A DNA stretch of 64,000 nt, taken from positions 15,081 through 79,080 of the IMG/VR virus record IMGVR_UViG_3300047552_000481; one strand, given 5' to 3'. Shown here piece after piece: positions 22,067 through 45,660 of this stretch. Within the stretch, counting starts at the first letter, position 1. Each line of letters starts with the position of its first letter. Below the pieces are notes generated by a model. That model saw only the letters and a program-made list of their open reading frames with translations, was not told the origin of the DNA and searched no databases. This stretch comes from a virus. The position numbers and the translations under genes were made by a program.

Positions 22067-23179
22067 TGAAAAAATTAAGTTTAGAGGATTTTAATAATAG
22101 ATTAAAAGAGAAAGGTATAAAATATACGTGTTTAGTATATTATAATACTCGTGAAATTACAGAATTTTCCTGTCCAGAACTGGATCATCCTAATTTTTAT
22201 GCTAGACCAGATGATATTTTATATGAAAAGAAGAAGTGTCCATGCTGCACAGGCAAAATTACAAAACACACTTTGGAATCTTTTAATATTAAATTAGAAG
22301 AAGTTGGAATAAAATATCGATGTGTGGATTATGTTGCTGCAAAAAAATTATCATCGTTTGCTTGTCCAGAATCATGTCATCCTAATTTTTATGCATATCC
22401 TGATGATATATTTAGAGGAAAAAAGAGTTGCCCATGTTGTACAAGTGATAGAGAATCTTGGATGAATTTTAGATTAAAATCTAAAAATATAGCATACACT
22501 TGTGAAACATATAATGGGTCTGATAAAAAGTCCGAATTTTCCTGTCCAGAACCAGATCATCCTAATTTTTGGTGTGATCCAGATGATGTTTTTAAAGAGT
22601 TGAGAGGGTGTCCAATTTGTACTAATTATGTTGAGCGTAATAATTGGGATACCGAATCATATGATAAATTATTATTGAGTAAAAATATTGTTGCATATGG
22701 GTTTGTTGGGAGTAATATAAAAATTAAACACGAGTGTCTTGTGTGTGAATATGGAAAAGATGGTGAGTGGTACACAAAACCGATATACCTTATATATCAT
22801 GATTCTGGTTGTCCAAATTGTGCAGACTATACATTTGATTTGAATAAAAATGCAATATTATATTACATCAAAATATATCATAATGATAACATACTTTATA
22901 AAATTGGAATAACAACGAGAACAATAAAGAAGCGGTTGGTTGGAGAACGTATAAAATATGATGTTTTATTTTCAAAAAAATATGAAATTGGTAGAGATGC
23001 CAAACGTGTTGAAACTTTAATTTTGGAAAAATATAATCATCACAAATATGACGGAGATAAAATATTAAGATATACTGGAAATACTGAAATTTTTATATGT
23101 GATATTTTTGGCGGCACTTATGATTTGACTGAGCTTGAAGAATGTGATATAATGGGTGTTGATGATTTTAAGTTTGAAT
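22044..23179 (+). repeat. 21-bp direct repeat TTGATGATTTTAAGTTTGAAT at 22044-22064 and 23159-23179
   Basis: Exact match; gp41 and the endonuclease both end DDFKFE*. Confidence 0.92.
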
Positions 23180-23181
23180 GA
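22066..23181 (+). CDS. Zinc-ribbon-repeat putative homing endonuclease (C-terminal GIY-YIG/T5orf172-like domain)
   Basis: Three F.CPE..HPNF...PDD..CP.C repeats, then LYYIK..YKIGIT..R..E..GNTEIF. Confidence 0.8.
   Translation: MKKLSLEDFNNRLKEKGIKYTCLVYYNTREITEFSCPELDHPNFYARPDDILYEKKKCPCCTGKITKHTLESFNIKLEEVGIKYRCVDYVAAKKLSSFACPESCHPNFYAYPDDIFRGKKSCPCCTSDRESWMNFRLKSKNIAYTCETYNGSDKKSEFSCPEPDHPNFWCDPDDVFKELRGCPICTNYVERNNWDTESYDKLLLSKNIVAYGFVGSNIKIKHECLVCEYGKDGEWYTKPIYLIYHDSGCPNCADYTFDLNKNAILYYIKIYHNDNILYKIGITTRTIKKRLVGERIKYDVLFSKKYEIGRDAKRVETLILEKYNHHKYDGDKILRYTGNTEIFICDIFGGTYDLTELEECDIMGVDDFKFE
23125..23153 (+). promoter_or_regulatory. Sigma70-type promoter inside 3' end of endonuclease gene
   Basis: TTGACT-17-TATAAT, extended -10. 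Confidence 0.8.
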
Positions 23182-24119: not shown

Positions 24120-24875
24120 ATGTCAGAATTAGTAACTATTGTAACAGCAACTACTGCAACAGATTATTTAAAGAGAAATATTGAATCTGTTCAGAAGCAA
24201 ACATACACAAATTTTCAACATTTAATTTTTATTGATGGGATTATTGGTGGTCCAAAGAACTTATCAAGAGTTCAAGAAATGATTTCGAATATGGCATTAA
24301 AAAATGTAGATTTTATTCCTCTTCCATATTCAGTAGGTCATTCAGGGTGGAATGGTCATAGAATGTATATGGCAGCATTAGCCCTGGCATCCGATAAAGC
24401 AGAATATATTTGTTTTCTAGATGAAGATAACTACATTGATGAAGATCATATTGAATCATTATATAAAGTAATAAAGAACGGTAATGAATATGCATTTTCA
24501 CTGAGAAAAATTGTTGATAAGGATGGAAACTTCGTTGTAAATGATGATTGTGAAAGTCTAGGATTATGGCATAGTATTTTACATCCAGAAGATTATTTTA
24601 TTGATTTGAATTGTTTCTTTCTCAAGAGATTATTAGCAAATCAATTGGCACCAATATTTTATAGGAAAGCGCGTGATCCTAATATGCAACCAGAAATTGA
24701 TCGAGCTTTATCACAAGTGTTGAGACAGAATAATCTCAAATATGATACTAATTATAAGTATACACTAAATTATACAGCAGGAAATACACAGAAGTCGGTA
24801 CAGAAAGAATTTTTCCTAAATGGAAATCAACAGATGTTGGTGAAATATAATGGATCATTACCATGGGTAAAATAA
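24120..24875 (+). CDS. Glycosyltransferase family 2
   Basis: VTIVT..IESVQKQTY..IFIDG..CFLDEDN. Confidence 0.85.
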   Translation: MSELVTIVTATTATDYLKRNIESVQKQTYTNFQHLIFIDGIIGGPKNLSRVQEMISNMALKNVDFIPLPYSVGHSGWNGHRMYMAALALASDKAEYICFLDEDNYIDEDHIESLYKVIKNGNEYAFSLRKIVDKDGNFVVNDDCESLGLWHSILHPEDYFIDLNCFFLKRLLANQLAPIFYRKARDPNMQPEIDRALSQVLRQNNLKYDTNYKYTLNYTAGNTQKSVQKEFFLNGNQQMLVKYNGSLPWVK

Positions 24876-25193
24876 ATGAATATTGTAAGTTATAAAATTG
24901 CATATAAATTATTAAATAAAAGAAAGGATAATTCGTTGGGACCATTATTTATTAATAAGAAACAACGGATACCAATTGGAATTTTATTAAAGGCAGAACC
25001 ACACAAAACGAAAGGATTTGCATTTAGACCGGGCTGGCATTGCACATCAAATCCTATTGCTCCTCATTTAAAAATGAATAATAGAGTTTGGACTAAAGTT
25101 ATAATCTCAGATTTTGAAGAAATTAAACGACCACAAAATCAAGGAGGAATTTGGTACATTGCTAATTACATGCAAATATTAGAAATTTTATAA
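24876..25193 (+). CDS. Hypothetical phage protein
   Basis: GFAFRPGWH, QGGIWY motifs. Confidence 0.65.
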   Translation: MNIVSYKIAYKLLNKRKDNSLGPLFINKKQRIPIGILLKAEPHKTKGFAFRPGWHCTSNPIAPHLKMNNRVWTKVIISDFEEIKRPQNQGGIWYIANYMQILEIL

Positions 25194-25380
25194 GGAAGTT
25201 AAATGGACACGATTCCGCTCAAATGTTTAATTTGTATAGAAGAGATATTGAATATTAGATATAATACGAGTTTGGAAGATAGTATCAAAAGACAATATTT
25301 TGCCTCGGAGCATTTTCGAATGATATTTGAAATAGCTTTGAAAGAAGCTTGTAAGAAAATTTATGAAGTGGTACCAAAAG

Positions 25381-25725
25381 ATGATTATAGTATCTGAAGA
25401 TGAATTCGTTAAGAATTTAAAATTAAAATTGAAAGGTGTTTCAGTAAAATCTGTTACAGGACCGGGGAGAAGTGGTGCCGTCGCATCTGTATTTTCATCA
25501 CATATTCTGAGGATTCCTTTCATTCCATACGGGCAAACATGTCCTGATAATTTACGACCACTATTGGTTGTTGATACCGCTAAACAATCTGGTGTAACAT
25601 TAAGGAAAGCACAAAAGAAATATGGTCCAAATTCTGTTGTCATAAATATTTACGACGAACCTCCACGGGTTAAATTCTGGTACGAATTTTTGGGTGAACA
25701 ATATGAAAGTAGCAATTCTCAATAA
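25381..25725 (+). CDS. Small phosphoribosyltransferase-like protein
   Basis: GPGRSG and LLVVDTAKQSGVTL resembling a PRPP-binding loop. Confidence 0.55.
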   Translation: MIIVSEDEFVKNLKLKLKGVSVKSVTGPGRSGAVASVFSSHILRIPFIPYGQTCPDNLRPLLVVDTAKQSGVTLRKAQKKYGPNSVVINIYDEPPRVKFWYEFLGEQYESSNSQ

Positions 25726-26635
25726 CTGGTGTAATGACGAACAATTCTTCATTTACAAACTTCTCAAACAACTATTCCCCGTTGAATTAACGAATGATCC
25801 AATCAATTGTGACATTCTAATTCATTCTGTATTTGGGTTTGATGAATCCTATAAACACACAAAAGCAAAATTTAAAATCTTAACCTCTTGGGAAACCAGA
25901 TTTTACATTGATATATTCAATGAACGTCTCCCATATTCTGATATAGTAATTTCATATCACCCAACTAAAAATAATTTCTATAGATTACCACTTTGGTATC
26001 AATGGATCGATTGGTGGAATGAAAATTCATCTGATCAAGTGACAACGGTTTGTGGTCAATCACATCATTATATTGGTGGAAATACTCTTCCGAATCATCT
26101 TGTCCCAACACCCTTAAATATAAGGAAAAATATTTATACTGCTCCCTCGGTCAGAAAAAGACCAAACTTTTGTGCGATGTTAGTTGGTAACATGGAACCA
26201 GAATGTGTTGCTCCCAGACAAGAAATTTATAATGAATTATCCAAGAATATTGATGTTGTATCTGGGTTTGGTCTAGCATTTCAAAACAGATTTGAAGGAA
26301 ATAAGATTGAATTATTAACCAGATTCAAAGCAAACTGCTGTTATGAAAATTCTATACATCGTGGGTATACGACAGAAAAAATTCTAGATGCCATATTCGC
26401 TGGATGTTTACCTATATATTCTGGTGATCCAGAATATTCTAAAATCGACTTTAACCAAAAACGATTTTTAAATAGACAAGATTATTCTTCCACAGCAGAA
26501 TTTGTTAAAGAAGTAAAATCAGTCATGGAAGATAAATTTGAATTTGATGATATAATCAATCAACCAATGTTCACAGATAACCAAATTCCAAACCTAGACG
26601 GTATATATCAATTTTTAGAGGATAAAATAAAATGA
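25703..26635 (+). CDS. Glycosyltransferase family 10 (alpha-1,3-fucosyltransferase-like)
   Basis: FKANCCYENS..GYTTEKILDA..AGCLPIYSG; RLPLW. Confidence 0.85.
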   Translation: MKVAILNNWCNDEQFFIYKLLKQLFPVELTNDPINCDILIHSVFGFDESYKHTKAKFKILTSWETRFYIDIFNERLPYSDIVISYHPTKNNFYRLPLWYQWIDWWNENSSDQVTTVCGQSHHYIGGNTLPNHLVPTPLNIRKNIYTAPSVRKRPNFCAMLVGNMEPECVAPRQEIYNELSKNIDVVSGFGLAFQNRFEGNKIELLTRFKANCCYENSIHRGYTTEKILDAIFAGCLPIYSGDPEYSKIDFNQKRFLNRQDYSSTAEFVKEVKSVMEDKFEFDDIINQPMFTDNQIPNLDGIYQFLEDKIK

Positions 26636-27609
26636 AAATTTGTTTCCATGTTAATAACTTGTCAATCAGGGGTACCACAACCGCCATTATAGATTACGGG
26701 ACATATAATGAAACGTTACTGAACAATACTTCAATTATCGCATATCACAAAAATCTATTGGATGAACTTCGTGATGAAAATTTTGTTATGCGGGAAGAAG
26801 TGGCAAAAATGTTCAAAGACAAATTTGATGTGATTGAATACACCGATAAAGGTAATCTATTAAATGAATTAAAGAAACGTGAATGTGAATATATCCATTA
26901 TCTGAAAGCCGGATTCAAAGATGATGATTTCTTGTTTGGTGTAAAGAATCTGATCCAGTGTGTATTCTCACATTTGGAGCCACACGGGCACAAATATTGT
27001 TACATTTCAGAATGGTTATCTAACGAAGCTTCTGGTGGCGAATATCCATTTGTTCCCCATATTGTTACATTACCTACAGAACAAACTGAAAATTGGCGAT
27101 TAAAATTAGGAATTCCAAATGATAAGATTGTTGTGGGTCGTCATGGTGGATTTCATCAATTCAGTATACCCTTTGTAAAAGACATTATCAATTTTGTGGC
27201 ACATTCAGATGAAAAATTTAGATTTGTTTTCGTTAATACTGAAAAATTTACAGATCATCCTAATGTTATCTTTTGTGATCCTATTATTAGTCCGCAAGAT
27301 AAGACCAATTTTATTTTAGCATCCGATGCGATGATACACGCCAGACCGGATGGTGAATCATTCGGGCTTAGTATAGCGGAAGGATTATTTCACAATAAGC
27401 CAGTTTTCACTTGTGGATTAGGAAGAGACAAAAATAACATAGAGCTTGTAAAAGGCTACGATCTGTGTTATAATAACCAGTACGAGTTGTTGGATATGAT
27501 TTTCAGGCTAAAATATGGGCATCATAAATATCAATATAATTATGCTGTGAAGGAATTTAGCCCAGAAAATGTGATGAAGAAATTTGAAGAGGTATTTTTA
27601 AATGAATAA
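26632..27609 (+). CDS. GT-B (GT4-like) glycosyltransferase
   Basis: RGTT.A..DY, GRHGG, HARPDGESFGLSIAE. Confidence 0.85.
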   Translation: MKICFHVNNLSIRGTTTAIIDYGTYNETLLNNTSIIAYHKNLLDELRDENFVMREEVAKMFKDKFDVIEYTDKGNLLNELKKRECEYIHYLKAGFKDDDFLFGVKNLIQCVFSHLEPHGHKYCYISEWLSNEASGGEYPFVPHIVTLPTEQTENWRLKLGIPNDKIVVGRHGGFHQFSIPFVKDIINFVAHSDEKFRFVFVNTEKFTDHPNVIFCDPIISPQDKTNFILASDAMIHARPDGESFGLSIAEGLFHNKPVFTCGLGRDKNNIELVKGYDLCYNNQYELLDMIFRLKYGHHKYQYNYAVKEFSPENVMKKFEEVFLNE

Positions 27610-28336
27610 AGATTATGATATTTACGTAATGCATTATACTCCGCATGAGTCTAGACGAAAACTCATGTATAATATTTTACAGAAAGAAAACTGTGATAAA
27701 GAAGTGATTTTCATTGAATCTTATGATGGCGAAGAAGTTACTTATGAAGATTACTTAAAGCATTTCAAAGCAGATACATTAGAATGGCAGAATCGCGGTT
27801 ATAAAAAATTTTGGCCACATTACCCATTAAAGAAACAAGAAGTATCGTTAGCCTTAAAACATGTTACTGCTATGCGGATATTTTTGGAATCGGATAAGGA
27901 TATTGCATTATTTCTAGAAGATGATGCAATTCTGGATGAAGGGTTCTTTACTAAATTAGATAAGCATCTTGATACATTAAATACTTATTTTGATGTGGCA
28001 TTTATTGGTCGGGGGTGTAAACCAAGTATAAGTAATGTAGAAGGTTGGCATTTTAACCTGGAAGATAGAAATACTGATTCAATGATAATGAGTCGAAAAT
28101 TTGTAACTAAATTTTTAGACTATGTTGACACAATTCGCATGTGTTTTCCCATTGATCACGAGTTGAATTATTTTATTGGGTATTGTAGATGTAATGTTTA
28201 TTGGTTAGAACCACCAATTGTAACACAAGGAAGTCATCTTGGAATTTTTGATTCGTTTCAAGATGCACATTCTAAATTTAATGATAAAACATTACCAGTT
28301 CGATCTGATCTAAATGAATTGATGGAGCAAATATGA
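27602..28336 (+). CDS. Glycosyltransferase family 25-like
   Basis: RR..M, SLALKH, FLEDDA, PIDHEL, VTQGS. Confidence 0.8.
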   Translation: MNKDYDIYVMHYTPHESRRKLMYNILQKENCDKEVIFIESYDGEEVTYEDYLKHFKADTLEWQNRGYKKFWPHYPLKKQEVSLALKHVTAMRIFLESDKDIALFLEDDAILDEGFFTKLDKHLDTLNTYFDVAFIGRGCKPSISNVEGWHFNLEDRNTDSMIMSRKFVTKFLDYVDTIRMCFPIDHELNYFIGYCRCNVYWLEPPIVTQGSHLGIFDSFQDAHSKFNDKTLPVRSDLNELMEQI

Positions 28337-29079
28337 AATATGCAATTTGTTATCGAGGTATCTCGTTTATTGAGAATTATTCTCATAAAGATGATATTCC
28401 TTCATACACGATAGATTTCGCTAATACAATTCCATTCAACAGGAAATATTTAATTGATCCTTTATTGGAACGTGGGGATGAAGTAGATATCTTTTTCAAC
28501 ACATATGATTCAGAGAAATTTGATTATTTTGAAAAAGAAATGAATCCTGTTGCGGTTAGAACAAGTGTATTTGACAATAATATCAAATATTGTAATTGGC
28601 CTAACATCTGGCAAATTTCAATTGATACTATGGAAATGGTTGATAGTCATCAAAAAGTATCAGGAAAGTGGTATGATTATATCATTTTGTTTAGATATGA
28701 TCTAATCCCATATATGGATTTTTCAAAGATCTTTATTCCAATGGATGCTGTTTCGTGTCCAAGTCCACAAGATGATATGTTTACTGTTATCCCTGGCTAT
28801 CTACTAAGTGATGTATTACATTTATTCAAAGAGTTCAAGTATTCTGGCATGATACATAATTATACAGCCATATTAAGTCATTTTGGAATTAAATGTCATA
28901 CCATGTTTACGAAAGATTTTGACAGAGATTCATATCCATTTTTTAGGAATACTAGACATATCTTTGTTCCAGAAGATCATCCATATTATGAACACAAAAT
29001 TGAAGACATTTTTGATCCTAACCATAAAAAATATGGACTGAAATATGAGGCACACGATAAATTCGTCTCTTGTGTATAA
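28333..29079 (+). CDS. Putative glycosyltransferase (paralog of 32050 and 33419)
   Basis: K.AI...G, D.F..TY, YD.II..R.DL, DD.F. Confidence 0.55.
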   Translation: MKYAICYRGISFIENYSHKDDIPSYTIDFANTIPFNRKYLIDPLLERGDEVDIFFNTYDSEKFDYFEKEMNPVAVRTSVFDNNIKYCNWPNIWQISIDTMEMVDSHQKVSGKWYDYIILFRYDLIPYMDFSKIFIPMDAVSCPSPQDDMFTVIPGYLLSDVLHLFKEFKYSGMIHNYTAILSHFGIKCHTMFTKDFDRDSYPFFRNTRHIFVPEDHPYYEHKIEDIFDPNHKKYGLKYEAHDKFVSCV

Positions 29080-29088
29080 GGAGAACAT

Positions 29089-30465
29089 ATGAATAAACTT
29101 ATTATATTCGATTTGGATGGTGTTTTGGTAGAATCGAAAGAGTGGCATTTCTACAGTTTAAATGATGCATTAGAGAAGGTTGATCCAAAGTATATGATAT
29201 CGTATGATGAACATTTATCAACATATGATGGATTGAACACAACCAAGAAACTAAAAATTCTAACACAGAACAAAGGTTTAGATCCAAAATATTATGATCA
29301 AGTTTGGCAAGACAAGCAGACTGCAACATTTGAAATTTTAAAAACAATTAAACCAAATCAAAAGAACATATCTATTTTCAAGGAATTGCGAAGTCGAGGA
29401 TACAAAATTGCTGTCGCATCCAATTCAATTAGAGAATCATTAAAGTTAATGATTTTAAATATGGGATTGATGGAATATACCGATTTGTGTATTTCCAATG
29501 AAGATGTTTCCAGAACAAAACCTTATCCAGAAATGTATTGGAAATGTATGACATTATTGAATGCATTACCCAAGAATACAATTATCATAGAAGATTCCCA
29601 TCTGGGCAGACAAGGTGCATTAGATTCTGGTGCCCATTTATTGGCAATTGAAAATGTTGACGATTTAAGTTTAAGCAAGATTTTACGAAAAATAGGTGAG
29701 GTTGAGAATATGGATCATAAAGATGTACCTTGGATTGATAATAAATTAAATGTATTAATTCCTATGGCCGGGAGAGGATCTAGATTTGAGCAGGCAGGAT
29801 ATACATTTCCCAAACCATTAATTGATGTTCGTGGAAAACCAATGATCAAAATGGTTGTTGATAACCTTAACATTCAAGCTAATTATATTTTCTTGGTATT
29901 AAAGGAACATATTGAGAAATATAATGTTGATTATATGTTACGATTGATGGTTCCTAATTGTAAGATTGTTGTTGTAGACCAAGTAACAGAAGGTTCCGCT
30001 TGTACAGTTTTATTAGCAAAAGATCTAATTGATAATGATAATCCTTTACTAATGGCAAATTCAGATCAGTTTTTGGTCTGGAATTCTAATGAAATACTTT
30101 ACGCTTTCAAGAATGATTCCATCGATGGTGGTATGGTAACATTTGAGAATTCAAGTCCAAAATGGTCATTTGCTAAATTAGATGAAAAGGGTTTCATTTC
30201 AGAAGTAGCAGAAAAGCGACCAATCTCAGATCACGCCAATACTGGCGTGATGTATTATAGAAAGGGGTCAGATTTTGTAAAATATGCAGAACAGATGATT
30301 GAAAAGAATATTCGTGTGAATGGTGAATTTTACACAACACCAGTAATGAATGAAGCTATCGCCGATGGTAAACTATTCAAAATCAAGCATATTGAACAAT
30401 TTTGGGGAACTGGAACACCAGAAGATTTAGATTCATTCTTAAGAGATTATAAAGGTAAGGTATGA
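29089..30465 (+). CDS. HAD phosphatase fused to sugar-phosphate nucleotidyltransferase
   Basis: FDLDGVL, KPYPE, IEDS; then PMAGRGSRF..PKPLI, NSDQ, AEK, GTPEDL. Confidence 0.9.
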   Translation: MNKLIIFDLDGVLVESKEWHFYSLNDALEKVDPKYMISYDEHLSTYDGLNTTKKLKILTQNKGLDPKYYDQVWQDKQTATFEILKTIKPNQKNISIFKELRSRGYKIAVASNSIRESLKLMILNMGLMEYTDLCISNEDVSRTKPYPEMYWKCMTLLNALPKNTIIIEDSHLGRQGALDSGAHLLAIENVDDLSLSKILRKIGEVENMDHKDVPWIDNKLNVLIPMAGRGSRFEQAGYTFPKPLIDVRGKPMIKMVVDNLNIQANYIFLVLKEHIEKYNVDYMLRLMVPNCKIVVVDQVTEGSACTVLLAKDLIDNDNPLLMANSDQFLVWNSNEILYAFKNDSIDGGMVTFENSSPKWSFAKLDEKGFISEVAEKRPISDHANTGVMYYRKGSDFVKYAEQMIEKNIRVNGEFYTTPVMNEAIADGKLFKIKHIEQFWGTGTPEDLDSFLRDYKGKV

Positions 30466-31262
30466 TCACATTAGTAACAATTTTTTATGACATAGGTAGA
30501 AAGGATTGGGGCAATTTTACTAGGAGTGTTGAAGAATATTTAACTGCCTTTACATTTTTCTTACATTATGATTATAAGATGATTGTTTTCATTGATGACA
30601 GATATCACGATAAGTTCATTGATTATTGTGGTGGAAGATTACACGAGAACATTAAAGTAATTAGAATCAATAGAGATTGGTTAAATAATAACATTTGGGC
30701 ATGGTCTAAATATAAAAAAGAAAAGGAGATTATGGGGTCTGAAACATATAGAAAAATCATTCCAGAACGAATTGCATTAAATTATCCAGAGAACACTAGA
30801 CCAGAATATACTATTTTAACTCATTCTAAAATTGATCTGGTTAATTATGTCATTGATAATAATCTAACAGAAGATGAATATGTTGGGTTTGTTGATTTTG
30901 GGTATTTTCATGACAAGACTGATCAGAGATATGTTCCCAGAGATACATTAGATATTAATAAGTTTGATTTGGATCGTGTAAATGTTTGCGCTGTTAATCC
31001 TATTAACAAGCAGGATAAGAATATTACTTGGACATTAATTAACGCACCAGAAAAGTTAGCAGCATATTTTTTCCTTGGTAATAGAGAAAATCTTAAGAAG
31101 TTTCAAGAGTTGGCACACAAATGGTTAGAAATCTTCCAGAATAAAAATATTGCCGACGATGAACAACATTTATGGTTACAATGTTATTTTGAGAATCCGG
31201 AATTATTTAGAGTATGGGCATTTGGTTATTGGCATCAAGCATTGAGGCATTTTAGTAAATGA
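30462..31262 (+). CDS. HtrL/YibB (WlaTC)-like glycosyltransferase
   Basis: TLVT.FYDIGR..W, HSK, VDFG, DDEQ. Confidence 0.75.
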   Translation: MITLVTIFYDIGRKDWGNFTRSVEEYLTAFTFFLHYDYKMIVFIDDRYHDKFIDYCGGRLHENIKVIRINRDWLNNNIWAWSKYKKEKEIMGSETYRKIIPERIALNYPENTRPEYTILTHSKIDLVNYVIDNNLTEDEYVGFVDFGYFHDKTDQRYVPRDTLDINKFDLDRVNVCAVNPINKQDKNITWTLINAPEKLAAYFFLGNRENLKKFQELAHKWLEIFQNKNIADDEQHLWLQCYFENPELFRVWAFGYWHQALRHFSK

Positions 31263-32065
31263 ACATTACATTTTTCATAACCCATAAAACGTTAGGTGTA
31301 GAGCATCTTGATTGTTGTTTTAAAAGTTTATCTAACCAATCATTATTATCAGCACCTATTTTTGATAAGTTATATATTTATAATACTCATGAAGACGAAT
31401 TATCTAATGAATTGATATTAGAGTATTATTACTTATATTGTTTAGATCGAATGTTTGGTGGTGTTGAGATATTTCCTTATGACAGCAATACTCATAAATC
31501 ATTGGGAGCAGATGTTAATGCCATCAAAGAATTTTGTCTAAATAACTTTGATGGACAAGATAGGGTTCTGATTTTAAAGTCCGATTGTCTTTTATCTAAA
31601 AATTACTTTAAAACGATTTTATCAACAAATCAAAGGGTTAGGGGAAATGTATATTTTGTGGCACCATTTATTTGTGCGAAACAGCGAGTTCCTAATGATG
31701 AAATATTTCAGTATTTGAATCGAGACAAAGTAGTATTTTCTGACGATATTACATTTTTTGTGGAAGATCAGTATCAGAGTATTAATACTGATTTCAACAA
31801 CAGAGACATTGATATTCTAAGTGAACAAATCAAATTTACATCTTGTTATGTAATTAGAGATTTCTCATGCCACTATTTCAATGTTGGTTTATTTCCTAAT
31901 ATAACTATTCAATATCAAAGTTGGGGTGGTGTTAATTTTTCAGAATTGATTCCTCATTTTGTTAGGACCGAAGATTGTTTTGTTATTCACAAATATCATT
32001 CTATCTTATCGGAAAATAGAAATACTGATAGAGAAGGACCGGTTAAGGCGTGGTTAGAAAGTTGA
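31259..32065 (+). CDS. Putative GT-A-like protein
   Basis: Island context; N-terminal beta strand FFITH, LKSD, HKYH. Confidence 0.45.
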   Translation: MNITFFITHKTLGVEHLDCCFKSLSNQSLLSAPIFDKLYIYNTHEDELSNELILEYYYLYCLDRMFGGVEIFPYDSNTHKSLGADVNAIKEFCLNNFDGQDRVLILKSDCLLSKNYFKTILSTNQRVRGNVYFVAPFICAKQRVPNDEIFQYLNRDKVVFSDDITFFVEDQYQSINTDFNNRDIDILSEQIKFTSCYVIRDFSCHYFNVGLFPNITIQYQSWGGVNFSELIPHFVRTEDCFVIHKYHSILSENRNTDREGPVKAWLES

Positions 32066-32706
32066 AAATAGCAGTATTATTGCCGGGTCATATCAGAGCC
32101 TGGGATTATTGTAAGCAAAATTTTATGGATACAATCTATGATAATACTCATCAAATAGATGTTTTCATTGATACTTATAATGATATATTTAGGAATGATT
32201 ATCAATTACATAAAGAAAATGAGATGGGTATAATTAAGGATGATTCTGAGGTATTATCATTATTTGAAGGAATTAATGTTGTTGATTTTAAGATTGAGAA
32301 TCAAATTCCTGGTGATGCTGAACAGATGCAGATTAGGAAGATATTAAAGAACGTCGAGACATATGAAAATTATGAACAAATGAATGGATTATATGATTTA
32401 GTTATAAAGAGTAGATGTGATATATTATTGGATGAGAAATTGGATTATGAAGAGATTCATAGGAATTGTGTAGAATCGAGGTTGATATATATTGGTACTG
32501 GTGCTGTACATATGCGAGAAAACGATATGTTTGCAATATGTAATAGTGAAACATTTAAATTTTATGGTAAAAGATTTTTAGATTTTCCAACGATTCATAG
32601 GAGTATGAATGAAATAGAATTGAAATATAATGTTTCATATTCACAAACAATTGGAATATCTATTGTACGATTAGATGGTAACAAAAACTATACGGTGTTC
32701 AAATGA
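32050..32706 (+). CDS. Putative glycosyltransferase (paralog family)
   Basis: KIAVLLPGHIR, DVFIDTY, YDLVIKSRCD, NDMF. Confidence 0.6.
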   Translation: MVRKLKIAVLLPGHIRAWDYCKQNFMDTIYDNTHQIDVFIDTYNDIFRNDYQLHKENEMGIIKDDSEVLSLFEGINVVDFKIENQIPGDAEQMQIRKILKNVETYENYEQMNGLYDLVIKSRCDILLDEKLDYEEIHRNCVESRLIYIGTGAVHMRENDMFAICNSETFKFYGKRFLDFPTIHRSMNEIELKYNVSYSQTIGISIVRLDGNKNYTVFK

Positions 32707-33422
32707 CAAATTTATATAACAGTAGTGGAAAAATTGATAGAGATCAAGACATTTATGATGCATTTAATGATTTTATATTTTCCACAGACAGGAACATATT
32801 TAATAAGATGTGGGCAAAAATGTATTTCTATGAAATGACAAAAGATTTACATGGAGATATAGTTGAATGTGGAGTATTTAAAGGTTCTGGCATGTCGGTT
32901 TGGTTGAAATTATTAGATATGTATGAACCTAATAGTATAAAAAAAGTAATTGGGTTTGATATGTTTGATCCTGGGTTTGTTGATAATTTAGAAGATATAG
33001 AAAAACATACGATGCAACAGGTATTTGATAGATGCAATATTGATTATGATGATGTATCATTGGAAACCATTAACAATAGATTATTAAATGCGGAATTTAA
33101 ACATGATAAATTTGAATTAGTAAAGGGCGATGTTTCATTTACAACTGAAGAATTTGTTGTTTCTCGTCCTGGTGCAAAAATTAGTATTTTATATCTTGAT
33201 TTAGATTTAGAAGAACCAACATATAATGTATTATATAATTTGTGGGATCGAGTTGTTCCGGGTGGTGTAATTGTATTTGATGAATATTGTTATCACAAAT
33301 GGACAGAAACGGCAGCAGCAGATAATTTTTTATCATATTTAGATTTCAAATATATAAAGGAAAATGGTTTTAAATTAAGCAAATTAAATATTAAATCACC
33401 AACAGCGTATATAATCAAATGA
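32703..33422 (+). CDS. TylF/MycF-family sugar O-methyltransferase
   Basis: GDIVECGVFKG, GFDMF, LVKGD, LDLD, GGVIVFDEY. Confidence 0.9.
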   Translation: MTNLYNSSGKIDRDQDIYDAFNDFIFSTDRNIFNKMWAKMYFYEMTKDLHGDIVECGVFKGSGMSVWLKLLDMYEPNSIKKVIGFDMFDPGFVDNLEDIEKHTMQQVFDRCNIDYDDVSLETINNRLLNAEFKHDKFELVKGDVSFTTEEFVVSRPGAKISILYLDLDLEEPTYNVLYNLWDRVVPGGVIVFDEYCYHKWTETAAADNFLSYLDFKYIKENGFKLSKLNIKSPTAYIIK

Positions 33423-34099
33423 AAGTAGCAATCATATATAACGGAAATGTAAGAACATTAGAACAAACGATAGATAACAATATCGAGAAATTTGAATTTT
33501 TGAATCCTGATTATTTTGCTTCAACATATCTCCACAAATATGGTTATCATCCTGCCGTCCAAACTTCAACAGGATTCTTTACAGATGAAGAATTAACAAT
33601 AGAACAGGTATATGCCCAATATGAAAAATTAAATACGAAAGACATTTTAATTGATAGAATTCAGGACATGACAACATTTTATGAATCTGAACAACATAAG
33701 ATCAACCCAAATATGAATCATGTGTCATCATATCTTCAATATGTCAAACTTAAGACTGGTCTAAAGATGATTAAAAATTATGATGTCATTATTAAAACCA
33801 GATGTGATTTGTTATTAAATAATATATCTCACATTAATTTCGATAATATTGATAACAAGTTAATTGTTGATAAGGGCAACATATTTCCTAATGATTGTAT
33901 TTTCATGACATCTACTGAAAAGATGTATAAACTAGCCGATTTCATGGTTAATGAATTTTATAATTTAACAGATGTTGAAAGTTCAACTAATCCTCCACAC
34001 GGTTTATTATGTTCTGCTTGTAGACATCTAAATTTAGAGATTGAACAACATCACATCATTGATTGTGTTATTCGAGCCAATACGAGGATATATCTATGA
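33419..34099 (+). CDS. Putative glycosyltransferase (paralog family)
   Basis: KVAIIYNGNVR, DYFASTY, YDVIIKTRCD, PND. Confidence 0.6.
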   Translation: MKVAIIYNGNVRTLEQTIDNNIEKFEFLNPDYFASTYLHKYGYHPAVQTSTGFFTDEELTIEQVYAQYEKLNTKDILIDRIQDMTTFYESEQHKINPNMNHVSSYLQYVKLKTGLKMIKNYDVIIKTRCDLLLNNISHINFDNIDNKLIVDKGNIFPNDCIFMTSTEKMYKLADFMVNEFYNLTDVESSTNPPHGLLCSACRHLNLEIEQHHIIDCVIRANTRIYL

Positions 34100-34761
34100 A
34101 ATATTACAGTCAATATGATCAAGATAAAATTGTGAATGAACATTTCTTCCATAATAATAAGAATGGAATCTTTGTTGATATTGGCGCACACGATGGTAAA
34201 TTCTTAAGTAACACATATTTCTTTGAAAAATATCTAGATTGGACCGGAATTTGCGTAGAACCAAATCCAGAGGTATATCAAACACTCATTGAAAATAGAA
34301 AATCTAAATGTTATAATATTGGATTAAATGATGTCCCAGGAAAGGTTTTGTTTCAACAAAATTCTGGTTATACAGAAACATTAAGCGGTATTGTTAATCA
34401 ATTTGAAGAAGAACATGTTCAGCGAATAGAAAATGAAAATCTAGAACACAATTTAATCCCAAATTACATAGAAATTGAATGCGATACTCTCAATAATATA
34501 TTAGAATATTGTAATATAAATACTATTGATTACATGAGTATAGATACAGAAGGCTCCGAATATAACATATTAAAGAACTTTGATTTTGACAAGTATCACG
34601 TAAACGTATTAGATGTTGAGATAAATTACTTTATGTCCGAAAAGGCACAGAACATTTTTGAATTATTGAAAAACAGGTTTGGTCGTATTATACGGGTAAG
34701 ACAAGATATCATTTTTATAAACAACGATTTGAGATATTCATATGAAACTAATTGCACATAG
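34096..34761 (+). CDS. FkbM-family methyltransferase
   Basis: YSQYDQD, FVDIGAHDG..SNT, VEPNP, IDTEGSE. Confidence 0.9.
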   Translation: MKYYSQYDQDKIVNEHFFHNNKNGIFVDIGAHDGKFLSNTYFFEKYLDWTGICVEPNPEVYQTLIENRKSKCYNIGLNDVPGKVLFQQNSGYTETLSGIVNQFEEEHVQRIENENLEHNLIPNYIEIECDTLNNILEYCNINTIDYMSIDTEGSEYNILKNFDFDKYHVNVLDVEINYFMSEKAQNIFELLKNRFGRIIRVRQDIIFINNDLRYSYETNCT

Positions 34762-35200
34762 AGGAAATGTATCTGGAGCAAATCCAGAATTAGAGAATTC
34801 TCCACAACAAATTGATTATTGTATCATGAAAGGTTTTGATGTTGAAATTGACGTTTGGTATATAGATAGAAAGTTTTATCTTGGCCATGATACATATCAA
34901 TATGAAGTATCACTTTCATATTTAAGTGAAAGATCAAAATATCTATGGATGCATTGTAAGAATTTATTGGCGTTACGAGAGTTTCAACACACATGGTTTA
35001 ATTATTTTTGGCACCAAAAAGATGATTACACATTAACTTCTCTGGGATATATCTGGACATATCCTGGGCTAAATTATTTTACTAATTCAAGACAAGTATT
35101 ATTAGATTTTTCTGAAATGTCAGATAAAAAACTAGAATATTATGAAAGTCTTGGTGTTTATGGTTTATGTTCAGATTATGTAAATTATAAATACTTATAA
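34742..35200 (+). CDS. Glycerophosphodiester phosphodiesterase-like protein (short form)
   Basis: IAHRGN, EN.P, VEIDV, LGHD, HCKN, CSD. Confidence 0.8.
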   Translation: MKLIAHRGNVSGANPELENSPQQIDYCIMKGFDVEIDVWYIDRKFYLGHDTYQYEVSLSYLSERSKYLWMHCKNLLALREFQHTWFNYFWHQKDDYTLTSLGYIWTYPGLNYFTNSRQVLLDFSEMSDKKLEYYESLGVYGLCSDYVNYKYL

Positions 35201-35203
35201 ATA
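35186..35203 (+). promoter_or_regulatory. Tandem T4 late promoters starting the late block
   Basis: TATAAATA twice (35186, 35196). Confidence 0.75.
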
Positions 35204-35220
35204 CTTAATTTACAACAAAC

Positions 35221-35976
35221 ATGTTAAATTCAATTTTTTTAGTAGGTGGGCCTGGGTCTGGTAAAAATATATTACTAGATACCATTAAAAAATATAATTT
35301 TAAAGAAATTACATTAGATAGTATCAATTCTAACTTAGATAAGTTAACTGAGAATTATATTATCAATTGTAATGCATATGCTTATGATAAAATTATAGAA
35401 ACCAATAATATATTATTAGATAATAACTATAACACATCAATGATTTTTGTTGATGTGAATGAGAATACAGTTAAAAACAGAACTTTCGGTAGATTGATAT
35501 CTGAAGATATTTATCAGAAAAAATATATTCAATCTAAAGAAAACTTATATAAATTTTATGATTTGTTTGAGAATTTTATCAGATATGATAATAATAATGA
35601 TTTATCTGAACAGGACTTTTCTGATGTAGAAAAATTTATTATTGAAGTATTATCATTAAGTAATATAAAAGCTTTTGTTAAGAAATTGAAAGCTAAAGGG
35701 GAAAACATTAGACCATCTAAAATTAATTATAGATCTTCAAATACTACTAGATCTAAATTAAATAAGACGGTTCAACCAGATGAAGATTTAATCAATAATG
35801 TTAAGCAAAGTATAAAAGTATCAGAAAATGCTGAACCATCGGTTTCAAATGTATCTATGATTGGTGTAGAAGGCGGCGGATTTAAACAAGAAGAACCTAT
35901 TCAATCTAAGAGTTATAGTTGTAAACCAACAAGAAAAACTTGGAAACGTGCCAAGAAAATCTTATTCAAAGGGTAA
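35221..35976 (+). CDS. P-loop NTPase/kinase-like late protein
   Basis: FLVGGPGSGK Walker A, MIFVD..R. Confidence 0.65.
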   Translation: MLNSIFLVGGPGSGKNILLDTIKKYNFKEITLDSINSNLDKLTENYIINCNAYAYDKIIETNNILLDNNYNTSMIFVDVNENTVKNRTFGRLISEDIYQKKYIQSKENLYKFYDLFENFIRYDNNNDLSEQDFSDVEKFIIEVLSLSNIKAFVKKLKAKGENIRPSKINYRSSNTTRSKLNKTVQPDEDLINNVKQSIKVSENAEPSVSNVSMIGVEGGGFKQEEPIQSKSYSCKPTRKTWKRAKKILFKG

Positions 35977-35983
35977 TAAGAGA

Positions 35984-36949
35984 ATGCTAAAAGAAAAATT
36001 ACTATCAATATATAATGAATATGGTGAAGAAGATGAATTATTAGAATATCGGATTACTCCACTCCGTAGATTTATACGTCTTATAGGAATGGACCCAGAA
36101 AAGATGTCTCAAAAGCAAATTGACAAGATTTCATCTGGTTCCAGATATAAACAATGGTTATCAACCAAACGAATTCTTCATCGTGCCTCAGAATCTAATA
36201 AACACAATCCAAATCTAAAAGAAGATTTATTAGATGAAAATCGATTTGCTGGATGGACTGCCAAGAAATTTCATAGACATCTATTAGATAATGGATTTGA
36301 ATTAGAAGGCGGCTCAAAACATTTTGGATACGTTCACAAGAAAACTGGACGTAAAATTAAACCAATTCCAAATCATAAGGGTGACATCCCACCAGGAACA
36401 GCCAAAGGAATATTAAATTCTATTGAAAACATTGTTAATGGAATTAATGAAGCAGATTCATATCAACCAAAAGATTATGAAATTGGAAAAGGTATTAAAT
36501 CTCCATCTGGAGCATTTAAGATTTATAAACGTAAATCGACCAGAGTAAATAAGAATACCACCAATTTACTTCCAACAGCAACATTAAAATCTGAATTAGT
36601 TAACAAAGGTTTTGATGTTCATACAACAACAAATATTACTACAAAAGGATTGAAGAAAGGTTTTCGTGCAACACCCAAAGAAAAACTTAAAGCCACTAAA
36701 GGAAAAGAGCATTATCTGATTCGTATGAAACAATCTGGAACAGCTTTCAAAGGTCAAACCGCACAAAGACTTAAATCATTATATCAAAAAGAAGATATTG
36801 AACATTTTACAGAAACAAAGGTTGAAAAACTGTTAAAAAAGAACAAACAGATTAAGAAAACCATGACTGGCAAACAATCTTCCGAAACGGATCTTATTCA
36901 AGTTAATCCAGAATTAACAACGAATAAACCAGAAAACTCTAATGATTAG
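35984..36949 (+). CDS. Probable internal head polyprotein containing a HicA-like domain
   Basis: HicA-like GF..GGSKH..H..PIPNHKGDIPPGT..GIL at about 36254-36424, flanked by LLE/LDE/INE motifs. Confidence 0.65.
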   Translation: MLKEKLLSIYNEYGEEDELLEYRITPLRRFIRLIGMDPEKMSQKQIDKISSGSRYKQWLSTKRILHRASESNKHNPNLKEDLLDENRFAGWTAKKFHRHLLDNGFELEGGSKHFGYVHKKTGRKIKPIPNHKGDIPPGTAKGILNSIENIVNGINEADSYQPKDYEIGKGIKSPSGAFKIYKRKSTRVNKNTTNLLPTATLKSELVNKGFDVHTTTNITTKGLKKGFRATPKEKLKATKGKEHYLIRMKQSGTAFKGQTAQRLKSLYQKEDIEHFTETKVEKLLKKNKQIKKTMTGKQSSETDLIQVNPELTTNKPENSND

Positions 36950-36953
36950 GATT

Positions 36954-36961
36954 TATAAATA
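36954..36961 (+). promoter_or_regulatory. T4 late promoter
   Basis: Intergenic TATAAATA. Confidence 0.75.
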
Positions 36962-36994
36962 GTAATATATCAACCACTTTTATAGGACACGACA

Positions 36995-37783
36995 ATGGCA
37001 ACATGGGGCAGACGAGATTTCGCAAATAACAAACCAACATTTCCTGTAGAACGGGAAGTTCGAACCACAATTAAAATAGCAACCAACAGAGCAGCAAACG
37101 TTGCAACTTCTAACGTAACAATATTTTTTGCTAATACCGCAAATTTAGTAGCAGGAATGTTTGTTTCTGGCAACAATGTTCCAACCACAGCAAATGCAGG
37201 ATTCTTTAAGAGTAATGTATCTATTGTAACTGTTAATTTATCAAATGTTGTTATTTCAAGAGCATTAACAGCTAATACTTCTGTTGGTGATGTTTTTACA
37301 TTTGACACATTAATTCCATATAAAGCTAATACTGTTGCAACATCTTACAATGCAAATACATATCTTGTAACTAAAACTCGTATTGCTAATACCCAAGGAA
37401 TTGGAAATAAAGTTGCTACAGATGGTTGGGTTCATGTTGAACAAGGTAAAGGGCATATTGCCAATTTATCAGTATCAAATGTAGTATCAACATTAACCTA
37501 TTCTAATGCTTATTTAGCATTTTCAACCACAGGCGAAGTTGCGGCTAATGCTCAAATTAGGGTAAGTGGAACATCAAATGTTTCTATCCAAATCAATTAT
37601 CAGGGTAGAGGATATGTTAATATTCCAACGGTTTCTGCAACTGGCGCAAATAATGGTAACTTAATTTTCACTGTAACTCCTGGTGGACGTTTAGGTAGAA
37701 CTCAATGTGAAACATTAGTAGCACTTTCTAATGCTGTAGCACTTTCTGCAACATCTGGTGGGCCATATTTCCCAGGATTATAA
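36995..37783 (+). CDS. Probable virion structural protein, Asn/Thr/Ser/Ala-rich
   Basis: Late promoter; MATWG..D start, GWV, R...ETLVAL typical of T4-like structural proteins. Confidence 0.7.
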   Translation: MATWGRRDFANNKPTFPVEREVRTTIKIATNRAANVATSNVTIFFANTANLVAGMFVSGNNVPTTANAGFFKSNVSIVTVNLSNVVISRALTANTSVGDVFTFDTLIPYKANTVATSYNANTYLVTKTRIANTQGIGNKVATDGWVHVEQGKGHIANLSVSNVVSTLTYSNAYLAFSTTGEVAANAQIRVSGTSNVSIQINYQGRGYVNIPTVSATGANNGNLIFTVTPGGRLGRTQCETLVALSNAVALSATSGGPYFPGL

Positions 37784-38163
37784 TGAAAACATATAAACAA
37801 TTGTTATCTGAATTACATAATATTCAACCTATTCATAATGATACTAATAAATCAGATACCATTTCAGAAATGAATAAGAACTTGCATCTTTCATTAGATG
37901 CAAGTTTCCAACACGTTTCAGAAGCCTTGATTAAAGTAAAGAAAACATTATCTATGTATGGTATTCAATTACCACAATTAGATATTAATGAAGGCTCAAG
38001 TGGTTCTACTAGTGTGGTTGTGTCTAAATTTGATTCGTCTGGGGAAAATCACAAAAATGTGACTGCCCCCGGAGAAGAAAAAGCAAATAAACTTAAATTT
38101 AGTTTTTCTTATAAACTAACAGACGGACATTATAACTGTAGGGCATCTATTACTAAAGCATAA
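37783..38163 (+). CDS. Late protein with capsid-targeting-like N-terminus
   Basis: MKTYKQLLSE resembles T4 internal-protein leader MKTYQEFIAE. Confidence 0.6.
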   Translation: MKTYKQLLSELHNIQPIHNDTNKSDTISEMNKNLHLSLDASFQHVSEALIKVKKTLSMYGIQLPQLDINEGSSGSTSVVVSKFDSSGENHKNVTAPGEEKANKLKFSFSYKLTDGHYNCRASITKA

Positions 38164-38549: not shown

Positions 38550-38713
38550 TATTCAAAGATTTTAGAAAAAAACTTAAAGAAGATTTTGCTGGAACCGGAG
38601 TTTCTGGTGTCGCTGGCATTGGTGTTCCTGTAAATGGGGATAAAGCCCAAGCCGAACCAGGAGGTAAAGCAGCAAAAATGACTTTATTAAAAAGAAAAAA
38701 GAGGATCAAATGA
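38546..38713 (+). CDS. Small conserved late protein (55 aa, not in ORF track)
   Basis: MIFKDFRKKLKE|DFAGTGVSGVAGIG..EPGG..KRKK; ATGA overlaps at both ends. Confidence 0.7.
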   Translation: MIFKDFRKKLKEDFAGTGVSGVAGIGVPVNGDKAQAEPGGKAAKMTLLKRKKRIK

Positions 38714-39126
38714 TTACGTTCAAAGATTTATTAGAACAGTTGCAACCACAGCAACAGAACCCTGCCAAAATTAAAGCCGCAGAATTATTTAGTAGAGTTT
38801 ATGCTGCAATTAAAGCTGGGCATACCGCACATCTAATGGCACAAAGTTTTGCTCAACATGACGCATTAAATGATTTTTATACTGGTCTAGCACCAATCTT
38901 AGATAAAGTCATGGAAAATTTCATTGGTCGTATGGGTAGATTAGAATCTGCTCCACCAAATGTAAATGAAAAATCTTTAATGCCAATAGAAATTGTTGGT
39001 AACTTAACAGCTTGGTTAGATAGTAATAGACAATTCCTTGGAGAATTTTCTGAAATTCAAAATTTAATTGATGAAATGTTATCACTTTGTAATTCAACGG
39101 CATATAAGTTACGCGAACTAAACTAA
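38710..39126 (+). CDS. Ferritin/Dps-like four-helix protein (DUF5856-like)
   Basis: H..HL..SFAQHDALNDFY..D...E..G; NLIDEM..TAYKL. Confidence 0.75.
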   Translation: MITFKDLLEQLQPQQQNPAKIKAAELFSRVYAAIKAGHTAHLMAQSFAQHDALNDFYTGLAPILDKVMENFIGRMGRLESAPPNVNEKSLMPIEIVGNLTAWLDSNRQFLGEFSEIQNLIDEMLSLCNSTAYKLRELN

Positions 39127-39794
39127 TGGATTTTCCATTATTTACTGCTAAAATAGAACCAATACAGATGAGTTATAGTTTCAATTTTACATTAGATAAG
39201 TTTAATAAGGTAATAGTTAATAAGAATTCAAAGGAATGGTTTGATATTTTATATAATATTTTACCAAAATTTGAAATAAATACAAAAGAAAGAGTTGCTG
39301 GATTTCTTGCACAAACTAGTCATGAATCATCTGATTATAATACTGTTGTTGAAAATCTAAATTACTCGGCCATGGGATTGATGAAAACGTGGCCTAAAAG
39401 ATTTCCAACACAAAAAATAGCAACACAATATGCAAGAAATCCCACAAAAATTGCAAATAAAGTTTATGCAGATAGGATGGGGAATGGACCAGAATCAACT
39501 GGTGATGGATGGAAATATCGGGGGAGAGGAATAATTCAATGTACTGGAAAATCGAATTATTCTTTAGCATCCAAAGAACTTTATAATGATAACAGATTAA
39601 TTGATAATCCAGATTTAGTTTTAACAGATAAAACTATTTGTATTGAAGTTGCGTGTTGGTTTTGGAAACGAAATAATTTGAATCATATTGCAGATACTAA
39701 AGATATTGTTTTAATGACAAAACGAATTAATGGTGGAACTGTAGGATTACAAGATAGAACAAATAGGTATAATAAAGCATTAAAGGTATTATAA
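39126..39794 (+). CDS. Endolysin, glycoside hydrolase family 19
   Basis: FLAQTSHES, ENLNYS, YRGRGIIQ.TG, TKRINGG..GL.DR. Confidence 0.93.
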   Translation: MDFPLFTAKIEPIQMSYSFNFTLDKFNKVIVNKNSKEWFDILYNILPKFEINTKERVAGFLAQTSHESSDYNTVVENLNYSAMGLMKTWPKRFPTQKIATQYARNPTKIANKVYADRMGNGPESTGDGWKYRGRGIIQCTGKSNYSLASKELYNDNRLIDNPDLVLTDKTICIEVACWFWKRNNLNHIADTKDIVLMTKRINGGTVGLQDRTNRYNKALKVL

Positions 39795-40078
39795 TGCAAG
39801 ACACCAGAAAGGTAGTTCTGCCCAGAAGAATAATAAACGAAAAGATTATTTCGGTTTTTCATCAGTTTGGAAAATTTGTTTTAGTTTCAATTCAAGAATG
39901 TGACGATGCCGGAAATTTCTTAAACATCGCAAAGACAGTTGAAATTTCTGATGATTATTATAAAGAATTGTTGTCTAACTCACCAGAATGGGCCAAGGAT
40001 AAACCAGAAGGAGATTTTAGAACAGAAGACCTTTGGGTTTTAGTCGATAAGATTAGAAATGAATCAGGAGAACGATAA
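39794..40078 (+). CDS. Hypothetical protein
   Basis: Translationally coupled ORF. Confidence 0.6.
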   Translation: MQDTRKVVLPRRIINEKIISVFHQFGKFVLVSIQECDDAGNFLNIAKTVEISDDYYKELLSNSPEWAKDKPEGDFRTEDLWVLVDKIRNESGER

Positions 40079-44715: not shown

Positions 44716-44729
44716 TAAGGAATCTAATA

Positions 44730-45657: not shown

Positions 45658-45660
45658 GTC

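Follow-up and report, generated by a model that had tools for sequence, protein, structure and literature searches.

A glycosyltransferase island in a T4-like aquatic phage: a candidate host-derived module for remodelling the host surface glycan

Here we explore a glycan gene island at positions 24120-35200 of a 64,000-nucleotide stretch of viral DNA (hereafter the window), which corresponds to bases 15081-79080 of a 79-kb IMG/VR contig (IMGVR_UViG_3300047552_000481; CheckV completeness 44%) and has a GC content of about 30%. A preliminary description had presented the island as a coupled block of glycan genes whose product is attached to the virion. The window holds a T4-like backbone with a gp43 polymerase (43% identity to cyanomyophage polymerases) and a gp41-type helicase, together with DNA ligase and ribonucleotide reductase genes, while relatives carry gp23, which in this clade is 57-64% identical to cyanophage gp23. 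Judged from gp43 and gp41 in the window and gp23 in the relatives, the phage is a T4-like aquatic myovirus, its T4-like nature having been proposed before. Five of the relatives used for comparison are complete (G002-G006); G000 and G001 are incomplete contigs.

Gene content of the island

The island consists of 17 open reading frames (ORFs) on the plus strand, which either overlap by 4-37 nt or are separated by gaps of 0-9 nt, and the coupled arrangement described earlier is thereby confirmed. Seven to eight of the products are predicted glycosyltransferases (GTs), namely one each of the GT2, GT10, GT4-like, GT25 and HtrL type and two to three copies of a new GT-A family. The other enzymes are two sugar O-methyltransferases, a fusion of a HAD domain with a nucleotidyltransferase and a small phosphodiesterase of the GDPD type. 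The Pfam matches given below for GT2, GT10, GT25, HAD_2 and NTP_transf_3, HtrL_YibB, TylF and FkbM are all above cut-off, in agreement with the preliminary assignment of these families.

The first gene (24120..24875) encodes a GT2-family glycosyltransferase (PF00535, E 1.1e-8) with a G001 ortholog of 56% identity; of 80 related loci, 41 also contain a homologue. Three small ORFs follow in the interval 24876..25725 (24876-25193, 25203-25397 and 25363-25725). Their coding status is uncertain: they are without Pfam match and have no counterparts in G001 or in any of the 80 related loci. The accessory gene at 25694..26635 is GT10-like (alpha-1,3/4-fucosyltransferase family; C-terminal domain PF00852, E 2.2e-12) and has a G001 ortholog of 60% identity. 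The product of 26632..27609, previously called a GT4, appears to be a GT-B or GT4-like enzyme, as suggested by an EX7E-type motif and by weak profile matches: the profile of its family finds WbaZ-1, chlorovirus B736L and TreT in the PDB over GESFGLAICEG (EX7E-type), with E-values of 0.01-0.06. A GT25-family glycosyltransferase is encoded at 27602..28336 (PF01755, E 1.3e-5; score 25.6 bits, cut-off 24).

The gene at 29089..30465 belongs to the conserved core and encodes the fusion of a HAD domain (beta-phosphoglucomutase family; HAD_2, E 1e-27) with a sugar-1-phosphate nucleotidyltransferase (NTP_transf_3, E 3e-5). Further matches are to TIGR02009, bPGM, Arch_glmU and RmlA and to PDB entries 4evw and 1lvh, the nucleotidyltransferase part being GlmU/RmlA-like; we infer that the fusion supplies an activated sugar donor. 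It is followed by a protein of the HtrL/YibB family, known from the lipopolysaccharide (LPS) core locus (30462..31262; PF09612, E 2.7e-30; TIGR02192, E 7.6e-32, under the equivalog cut-off), and by a conserved protein (31259..32065) with orthologs of 53-60% identity in six relatives. The latter family found no match in Pfam or in a profile search of PDB sequences and, like the ORFs at 24876 and 25363, could not be assigned.

Two methyltransferase genes are located towards the end of the island, one for a TylF-type O-methyltransferase (32703..33422; PF05711, E 2.8e-13; Methyltransf_24, E 2.8e-9) and one for an FkbM-family methyltransferase (34063..34761; PF05050, E 8.5e-24) whose true start is probably an ATG near 34096. 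A role of both in capping the glycan is predicted from their domains. The last gene (34742..35200; phrog_34507), again part of the conserved core, encodes a phosphodiesterase-like protein of 152 aa, which had been noticed before and proved to be GDPD-like: the catalytic residues H6, R7, E35, D37 and H49 are unchanged in 29 homologues, and a weak match to a GDPD enzyme was found (7e0v, E 0.009). None of the island ORFs contains a membrane segment (no hydrophobic window >1.21), as had been noted. Two additional GTs that had been placed outside the island, at 6978 and 40745, are weaker candidates with sub-threshold matches only.

The genes at 32050..32706 and 33419..34099 are paralogs (BLASTP, 25% identity, E 6e-6). 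The AlphaFold2 (AF2) model of this family shows a GT-A fold with a pLDDT of 94.6, matched by Foldseek to GT6 and other GT-A enzymes (E 1e-5) and by VIA to BoGT6a (Z 12.9) and GnT-I (Z 12.3). By sequence, it has no match in Pfam and a profile search of PDB sequences was empty. The product of 28333..29079, also without Pfam or PDB match, aligns with the family alignment at an hhalign probability of 88% (E 3e-6) over the motif YDxxIxxRxDL. Since it shares this motif with 32050 and 33419, the earlier claim of three paralogous GTs holds. Across the three, the family motifs are GHxRxW, YDxVIRxRxDL, ND and PH, and each phage has two or three copies. As judged by the model and the profile comparison, these proteins would define a new GT-A-fold glycosyltransferase family, of which 28333 is a probable third member. 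Neither the unassigned 31259 family nor HtrL is related to it according to hhalign, and both were rejected as kin.

The 3' border of the island is marked by tandem T4-type late-promoter boxes on the plus strand (35186..35203), with TATAAATA at 35186 and 35196 shortly upstream of an ATG at 35221; the island thus ends where the preliminary description had placed its end. G001 has one TATAAATA at the equivalent position (120714). Over the whole window the box is not enriched (20 versus 15.6 expected), and between gp41 and the island end there is none in either the window or G001, the late boxes beginning right past the island. Scans for consensus sigma-70 promoters and terminators performed no better than on shuffled sequences and were rejected as timing evidence, for which reason early timing is deduced from where the island lies and from the lack of late boxes. 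From these, the island would be transcribed with the replication genes, ahead of the late genes.

Distribution of the core in phages and bacteria

G001, a contig of 135.7 kb, runs collinear with the window and contains syntenic orthologs of 11 island genes (44-69% identity). It lacks the small ORFs, 28333 and the FkbM gene, and has in addition a GDP-mannose dehydratase, an epimerase, a DegT aminotransferase and a GT2. In G001, G003 and G005 the island directly follows gp41, and in the latter two, which are complete, polymerase and gp41 precede the island, and the genes after it encode, in this order, the P-loop late protein, large proteins, the short homologue of the late 262-aa protein described below, DUF7207 and the lysis proteins.

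The HAD/nucleotidyltransferase fusion is present in 435 IMG/VR stretches at no less than 62% identity. Co-occurrence was counted by tblastn in 80 retrieved loci with this gene: the GDPD-like gene is present in 68 of them, and GT2, the HtrL-like gene and the GT-A family each in 41-49, while none yielded GT10, GT25 or FkbM. A distant FkbM-like ORF did emerge in G005 by blastp. Among relatives the fusion gene (29089-30465) is 63-69% identical, versus 44-55% for the DNA polymerase (15434-17995), which suggests either strong constraint or recent exchange of the module. Judged by gene content and order, the island is a clade-wide core to which variable accessory GTs and methyltransferases are added.

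A megablast of the island against cultured phages gave no match. At the protein level, the fusion is 58-60% identical in the cultured cyanophages S-CAM9, S-PRM1 and B3, and the cluster is also found in cultured phages B23, S-8S53/55/56 and DSL-LC03. The clusters of S-CAM9 (NC_031922, 146.5-156.3 kb) and S-PRM1 (MH629685, 67.6-77.3 kb) span about 10 kb and are located in a region of metabolic genes, with talC, hli, petE and psbA.

One genome per prokaryotic species was scanned with the profile of the GDPD-like protein. This identified 57 bacterial loci, mostly from Pelagibacteraceae (including the complete nBUS_30 chromosome, isolate HTCC9565 and HIMB123), the others from Fonsibacter lacus, SAR86, the candidate phyla radiation (CPR), Bacteroidota and Nitrospiraceae. 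In 49 of the 57 the HAD/nucleotidyltransferase gene adjoins the GDPD-like gene; identities are 44-60% for the former and 38-49% for the latter. No phage hallmark genes were found near these loci. In Pelagibacter the pair is located between recJ and an integrase gene, accompanied by a double GT4-type enzyme, GT2 genes and RmlC. On the SAR11 chromosomes of nBUS_30 (L158:7829-12513) and HTCC9565 (L154:6444-13439), the pair is held in a small variable glyco-island.

Two other bacterial loci add further genes. On a 286-kb Magasanikbacteria scaffold, the pair is accompanied by Wzm, by a Wzt that carries the Wzt_C cap-binding domain and by a ligase-like gene of the Wzy_C type, as well as by WavE, DegT, GT10 and an epimerase. 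A Crocinitomicaceae contig has Gmd, DegT, an epimerase, GT25, GT10, the pair and a GT4-like gene, which is nearly the whole set of the G001 type. Judged from their genes, the bacterial counterparts are surface-glycopolymer loci of the ABC-transporter type. The phage island resembles that pathway in that assembly would be cytoplasmic and by GTs free of membrane segments. The Wzm/Wzt exporter, the priming transferase and the ligase are absent from G000-G006 (PF01061, PF02397, PF00953 and PF04932), and GT9 was not found in the same seven genomes.

Late genes, the Asn motif and the host

The first gene past the boxes, outside the island proper, encodes a late P-loop (Zeta/kinase-like) protein with a low-complexity tail (35221..35976, plus strand; GGPGSGKN motif and faint Pfam matches) from a family that is syntenic in relatives. 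The next, at 35948-36949, encodes a basic late protein of 333 aa with a HicA toxin-like domain (PF07927, E 1e-6); there is no HicB gene nearby.

A late protein of 262 aa (36995..37783, plus strand; TATAAATA at 36954) had been proposed as the target of glycosylation. Asn residues preceded by Ala, Ser or Gly ([ASG]N) are in excess in it, and this excess is real: 22 of 30 Asn are in this context versus 8.2 expected (z about 6), a value reached by none of 20000 shuffles, and the protein is the sole outlier among the 84 ORFs of the contig. It is directional, since N[ASG] is not enriched, and neither is N-x-S/T; that N[ASG] is not enriched also led us to dismiss a local accumulation of small residues as the origin of the motif. 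Within the family, of which the N-terminus and C-terminus are conserved, z ranges from 2 to 6. Syntenic homologues, long or short, occur in G001 and G003-G005. That the protein would be tied to enlarged islands only was dropped: long forms are confined to one subclade (G000, G001 and loci L098-L100) and therefore provide no independent contrasts. As for the target role, tblastn against cultured phages, cluster-bearing ones included, found no homologue.

The AF2 model of the 262-aa protein (pLDDT 70) has two beta domains. The N-terminal beta-barrel is similar (Z 9.2) to domains that serve as insertions or decorations in tail-tube, baseplate and capsid proteins of phages, while Foldseek gave nothing at E <= 0.001 in the PDB, and matches in BFVD and Atlas were either uncharacterised or had a TM-score below 0.5. 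The late promoter and the fold make a role in the virion plausible, and by the model the protein is probably virion-associated.

Giant tail-fibre-like proteins of 1679-1864 aa are encoded in G001 at 41442-46481, 57738-63092 and 63129-68723 (L007, L008); they consist of Asn for 13-20% and have [ASG]N z-scores of 3.1-5.7. In the window, the late proteins at 37783-38163, 38710-39126 and 42010-44121 start with MKTYKQLLSE, MITFKDLLEQLQ and MLSFRDYLLLLE, respectively. By analogy with the capsid-targeting leaders of T4 internal proteins, which these starts resemble, the three may be packaged or injected.

The lysis block (39126-44458) contains a GH19-type endolysin, two membrane proteins (40078 and 40329) and two ORFs with a lipoprotein signal, at 41778 (LLLTAC) and 44105 (LLTSC). 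Because the latter are spanin-like, the host is Gram-negative as far as these signals tell. Since psbA is lacking in four complete relatives, and also in the incomplete G001, a cyanobacterial host seems unlikely; the GC content together with the bacterial homologues suggests a host from SAR11 or Fonsibacter. Mobile elements in the window are two paralogous genes for HNH-type endonucleases (22066-23181 and 58251-59339) and a gene for a TnpB-like transposase (49442-50680; phrog_506, E 4e-112). The first HNH gene lies between gp41 and the island and is missing in the collinear G001, and therefore looks like a homing insertion.

Interpretation and comparison with known systems

We tentatively favour the reading, which we hold to be possible and somewhat short of probable, that the island is a host-derived module that builds a methyl-capped surface glycan on the carrier and with the export machinery of the host. 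Its core is common to related phages and to surface-polysaccharide loci of aquatic bacteria, and for that reason remodelling of the cell coat is likelier than coating of the particle. The families GT25, HtrL, GT10, GT2, GT4, TylF and FkbM belong to LPS, lipooligosaccharide and O-polysaccharide loci, and here every copy is soluble. The reading is also favoured by the position of the island behind gp41 and ahead of the late boxes, by the metabolic genes that surround the cluster in S-CAM9 and S-PRM1, by the Gram-negative host as judged above, and by published work on pelagimyophages and cyanomyophages in which such clusters are taken as host-surface modification (PMC7029224, PMC12801897). In the proposed process the HAD/nucleotidyltransferase fusion would produce the activated sugar, with the GDPD-like enzyme probably supplying or processing a phosphodiester-linked component; this conserved pair probably makes an unusual donor. 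The seven to eight soluble GTs would then work on the cytoplasmic side of the membrane to assemble a branched oligosaccharide with fucose, and the TylF and FkbM enzymes would add caps. Since the phage has no priming enzyme, exporter or ligase, acceptor and export are most likely the host's own: the acceptor would be undecaprenyl-linked or of the LPS-core type, and export would proceed through a Wzm/Wzt-type or MsbA-type exporter and a ligase. The infected cell would end up with an altered surface glycan, which could block superinfection or keep progeny off infected cells and debris.

Several points weigh against this reading. The same lack of priming transferase, GT9, exporter and ligase makes the model wholly host-dependent. 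Synteny of the core extends through a deep clade, and conservation of its fusion gene exceeds that of the polymerase, which is unusual for a dispensable surface-remodelling set and would suit an acceptor intrinsic to the phage. Related clusters are found in phages of very different hosts, cyanobacteria as well as the hosts of psbA-free phages, and phage clusters of this kind appear to be known from genes alone. Finally, the [ASG]N excess in capsid and fibre proteins of the clade is left unexplained.

That last point leads to the virion. As is the case for chloroviruses, mimiviruses and a number of mycobacteriophages, soluble GTs could act in the cytoplasm on virion proteins, be it those of the capsid, the fibres or the decoration, with the 262-aa late protein as one acceptor. 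We regard this as rather unlikely, but it ranks second among the readings on account of the strongly conserved core, the missing export genes and the unexplained motif excess in capsid and fibres. A cytoplasmic, O-methylated fucose oligosaccharide, as proposed before, does agree with the enzyme families, with the proteins being free of membrane segments and with the tightly coupled genes, whereas its attachment to the virion is unsupported. The absence of flippase, polymerase and primer had been taken to indicate a virion target, and all enzymes are indeed soluble with no lipid-carrier or export genes in the five complete relatives or in the incomplete contigs G000 and G001. This argument is not decisive, because LPS-core extension and ABC-transporter-dependent O-polysaccharide assembly, with its methyl-cap ending, likewise use only soluble or peripheral GTs, and a bacterial locus with the homologous module has Wzm, Wzt and a ligase-like gene. 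Further points in favour of the virion are that a conserved syntenic core with variable GTs and methyltransferases resembles the core-plus-decoration pattern of chlorovirus glycans, that the island adjoins late genes, that the directional excess in the 262-aa family is real, and that the lack of a hydroxymethyl-base route makes DNA an unlikely target. Moreover, when every ORF of G003 and G001 is ranked by [ASG]N excess, the highest places go to the major head protein (z 3.9 and 4.0), to tail fibres (5.7, 3.5 and 3.1) and to a baseplate wedge protein (3.5), and capsid z-scores are 1.7-3.9 in six clade members versus -1.9 to 2.5 in six controls. On the other side, sheath, tube and portal are without excess, a D-to-N change at [ASG]D accounts for part, though not all, of the signal, the island lies outside the structural module without a late promoter and among metabolic genes in cultured cyanophages, cultured phages with the cluster yield no member of the 262-aa family, and the nearest cellular loci are polysaccharide loci linked to an exporter. 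The expected co-variation of island and motif failed, in a small-scale test, in the single phylogenetically independent contrast: capsids of five cluster-bearing cyanophages have z-scores of 0.9-1.8, equal to those of cluster-free ones, the test being imperfect as their GT sets differ. Capsid values being alike in cyanophages with and without the cluster, the excess is a lineage trait, confounded by phylogeny and not tied to the island. We give little credence to the more specific proposal that an abundant freshwater T4-like clade uses a self-encoded cytoplasmic pathway for N-glycosylation at [A/S/G]-Asn of its capsid, its fibres and a late protein dedicated to decoration; if true, it would be the bacterial-virus counterpart of chlorovirus capsid glycosylation.

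Two other products were considered. The glycan might stay inside the cell as a polymethylated oligosaccharide, glycoside or glycolipid that alters host physiology during infection, comparable to mycobacterial methylglucose and methylmannose polysaccharides or to compatible-solute pathways. The combination of soluble GTs with O-methyltransferases and a HAD domain of the phosphatase/mutase type would suit it, and the GDPD-like enzyme could be a source of glycerol phosphate. The missing export genes and the position of the Pelagibacter pair among housekeeping genes (recJ, glpX, hom), outside any obvious O-antigen locus, also agree with it. GT10, GT25 and HtrL are, however, surface-glycan families, the other bacterial homologues lie beside Wzm, Wzt and ligase-like genes, and we know of no precedent in phages for a non-exported methylated glycan, so that we consider it improbable. 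Glycan hypermodification of the phage's own DNA, as in T-even glucosylation or TET-linked DNA glycans, is suggested by the location of the island in the replication module beside gp41, and phage GTs are able to place multi-sugar glycans on DNA (Pyle et al. 2024, as cited in PMC12619734). Here the ThyA/dCMP-hydroxymethylase family (PF00303) is absent from G000-G006 and TET/JBP (PF12851) from G002-G006, in a search without positive control; enzyme families and O-methylation are of the surface-glycan kind, and the homologous bacterial loci are polysaccharide loci. DNA glycosylation is therefore unlikely on this gene content, and we hold it to be the least probable of the readings.

Whether the cell or the phage is re-dressed bears on superinfection exclusion, on host-range evolution and on the stability of particles in lakes and oceans. 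With more than 435 viral contigs, several cultured cyanophages, and counterparts in SAR11, SAR86 and other dominant aquatic bacteria, the core is very widespread.

Among established systems of virion glycosylation, chloroviruses (PBCV-1 Vp54) and mimiviruses are alike in their virus-encoded soluble GTs and methyltransferases, fucose-type chemistry and a core that is conserved while its decoration varies. PBCV-1 A64R (Z 9.6) and Mimivirus R699 (Z 11.1) can also be aligned with the GT-A model; these matches are generic for the GT-A fold, and no homology beyond it was found. They differ in that the host here is bacterial and that the noncanonical Asn motif, which in the chlorovirus type tracks the enzyme set, failed to do so in the independent contrast. 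The NGT/HMW1C type, an enzyme of GT41 together with the N-x-S/T sequon, finds no equivalent either, as GT41 (PF13844) is absent from G000-G006 and the sequon is not enriched. Virion glycosylation is established for mycobacteriophages Che8, Corndog and Myrna (Freeman et al. 2023, as cited in PMC12619734). In the account given there, these too have phage-encoded GTs that work in the cytoplasm, with GT genes in the structural operon and modification of capsid and tail-tube C-termini; here the genes are in the replication module, or among metabolic genes in the cultured cyanophages, and no acceptor tract was found.

The E. coli O8/O9a type (WbdD cap, Wzm/Wzt) shares with the favoured surface-glycan pathway a full cytoplasmic assembly by soluble GTs and the lack of Wzx/Wzy; its methyl-cap ending would be matched if TylF and FkbM act as caps in the phage. 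It differs in that primer, exporter and ligase genes are absent from the phage.

Closest are the putative surface-glycan clusters of Kyanoviridae-type T4-like phages, with which the island has in common the backbone, a cluster of soluble GT and sugar-nucleotide genes, and homologous genes. In S-CAM9 and S-PRM1, genes for an epimerase, several GTs and hypothetical proteins surround the same fusion; in contrast to the window, their cluster does not follow gp41, and no GT10, GT25, HtrL or 262-aa protein was detected in it. The 'LPS' or 'cell-wall modification' clusters of P-SSM2, S-SCSM1, S-SCSM2R and pelagimyophages have been taken as host-surface modification (PMC12801897, PMC7029224), and for pelagimyophages and cyanomyophages DNA protection has loosely been suggested as well (PMC7029224, PMC12801897, PMC10611076). 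They are alike in having many soluble GTs (GT10, GT25, GT2, GT4) and sugar-nucleotide enzymes in T4-like phages of aquatic origin, and unlike in being called hypervariable and sporadic, whereas the core described here is syntenic throughout its clade and present in more than 435 contigs. The kind of locus is already known from cyanophage and pelagiphage genomes; new are the clade-wide core, its bacterial counterpart and the new GT-A family.

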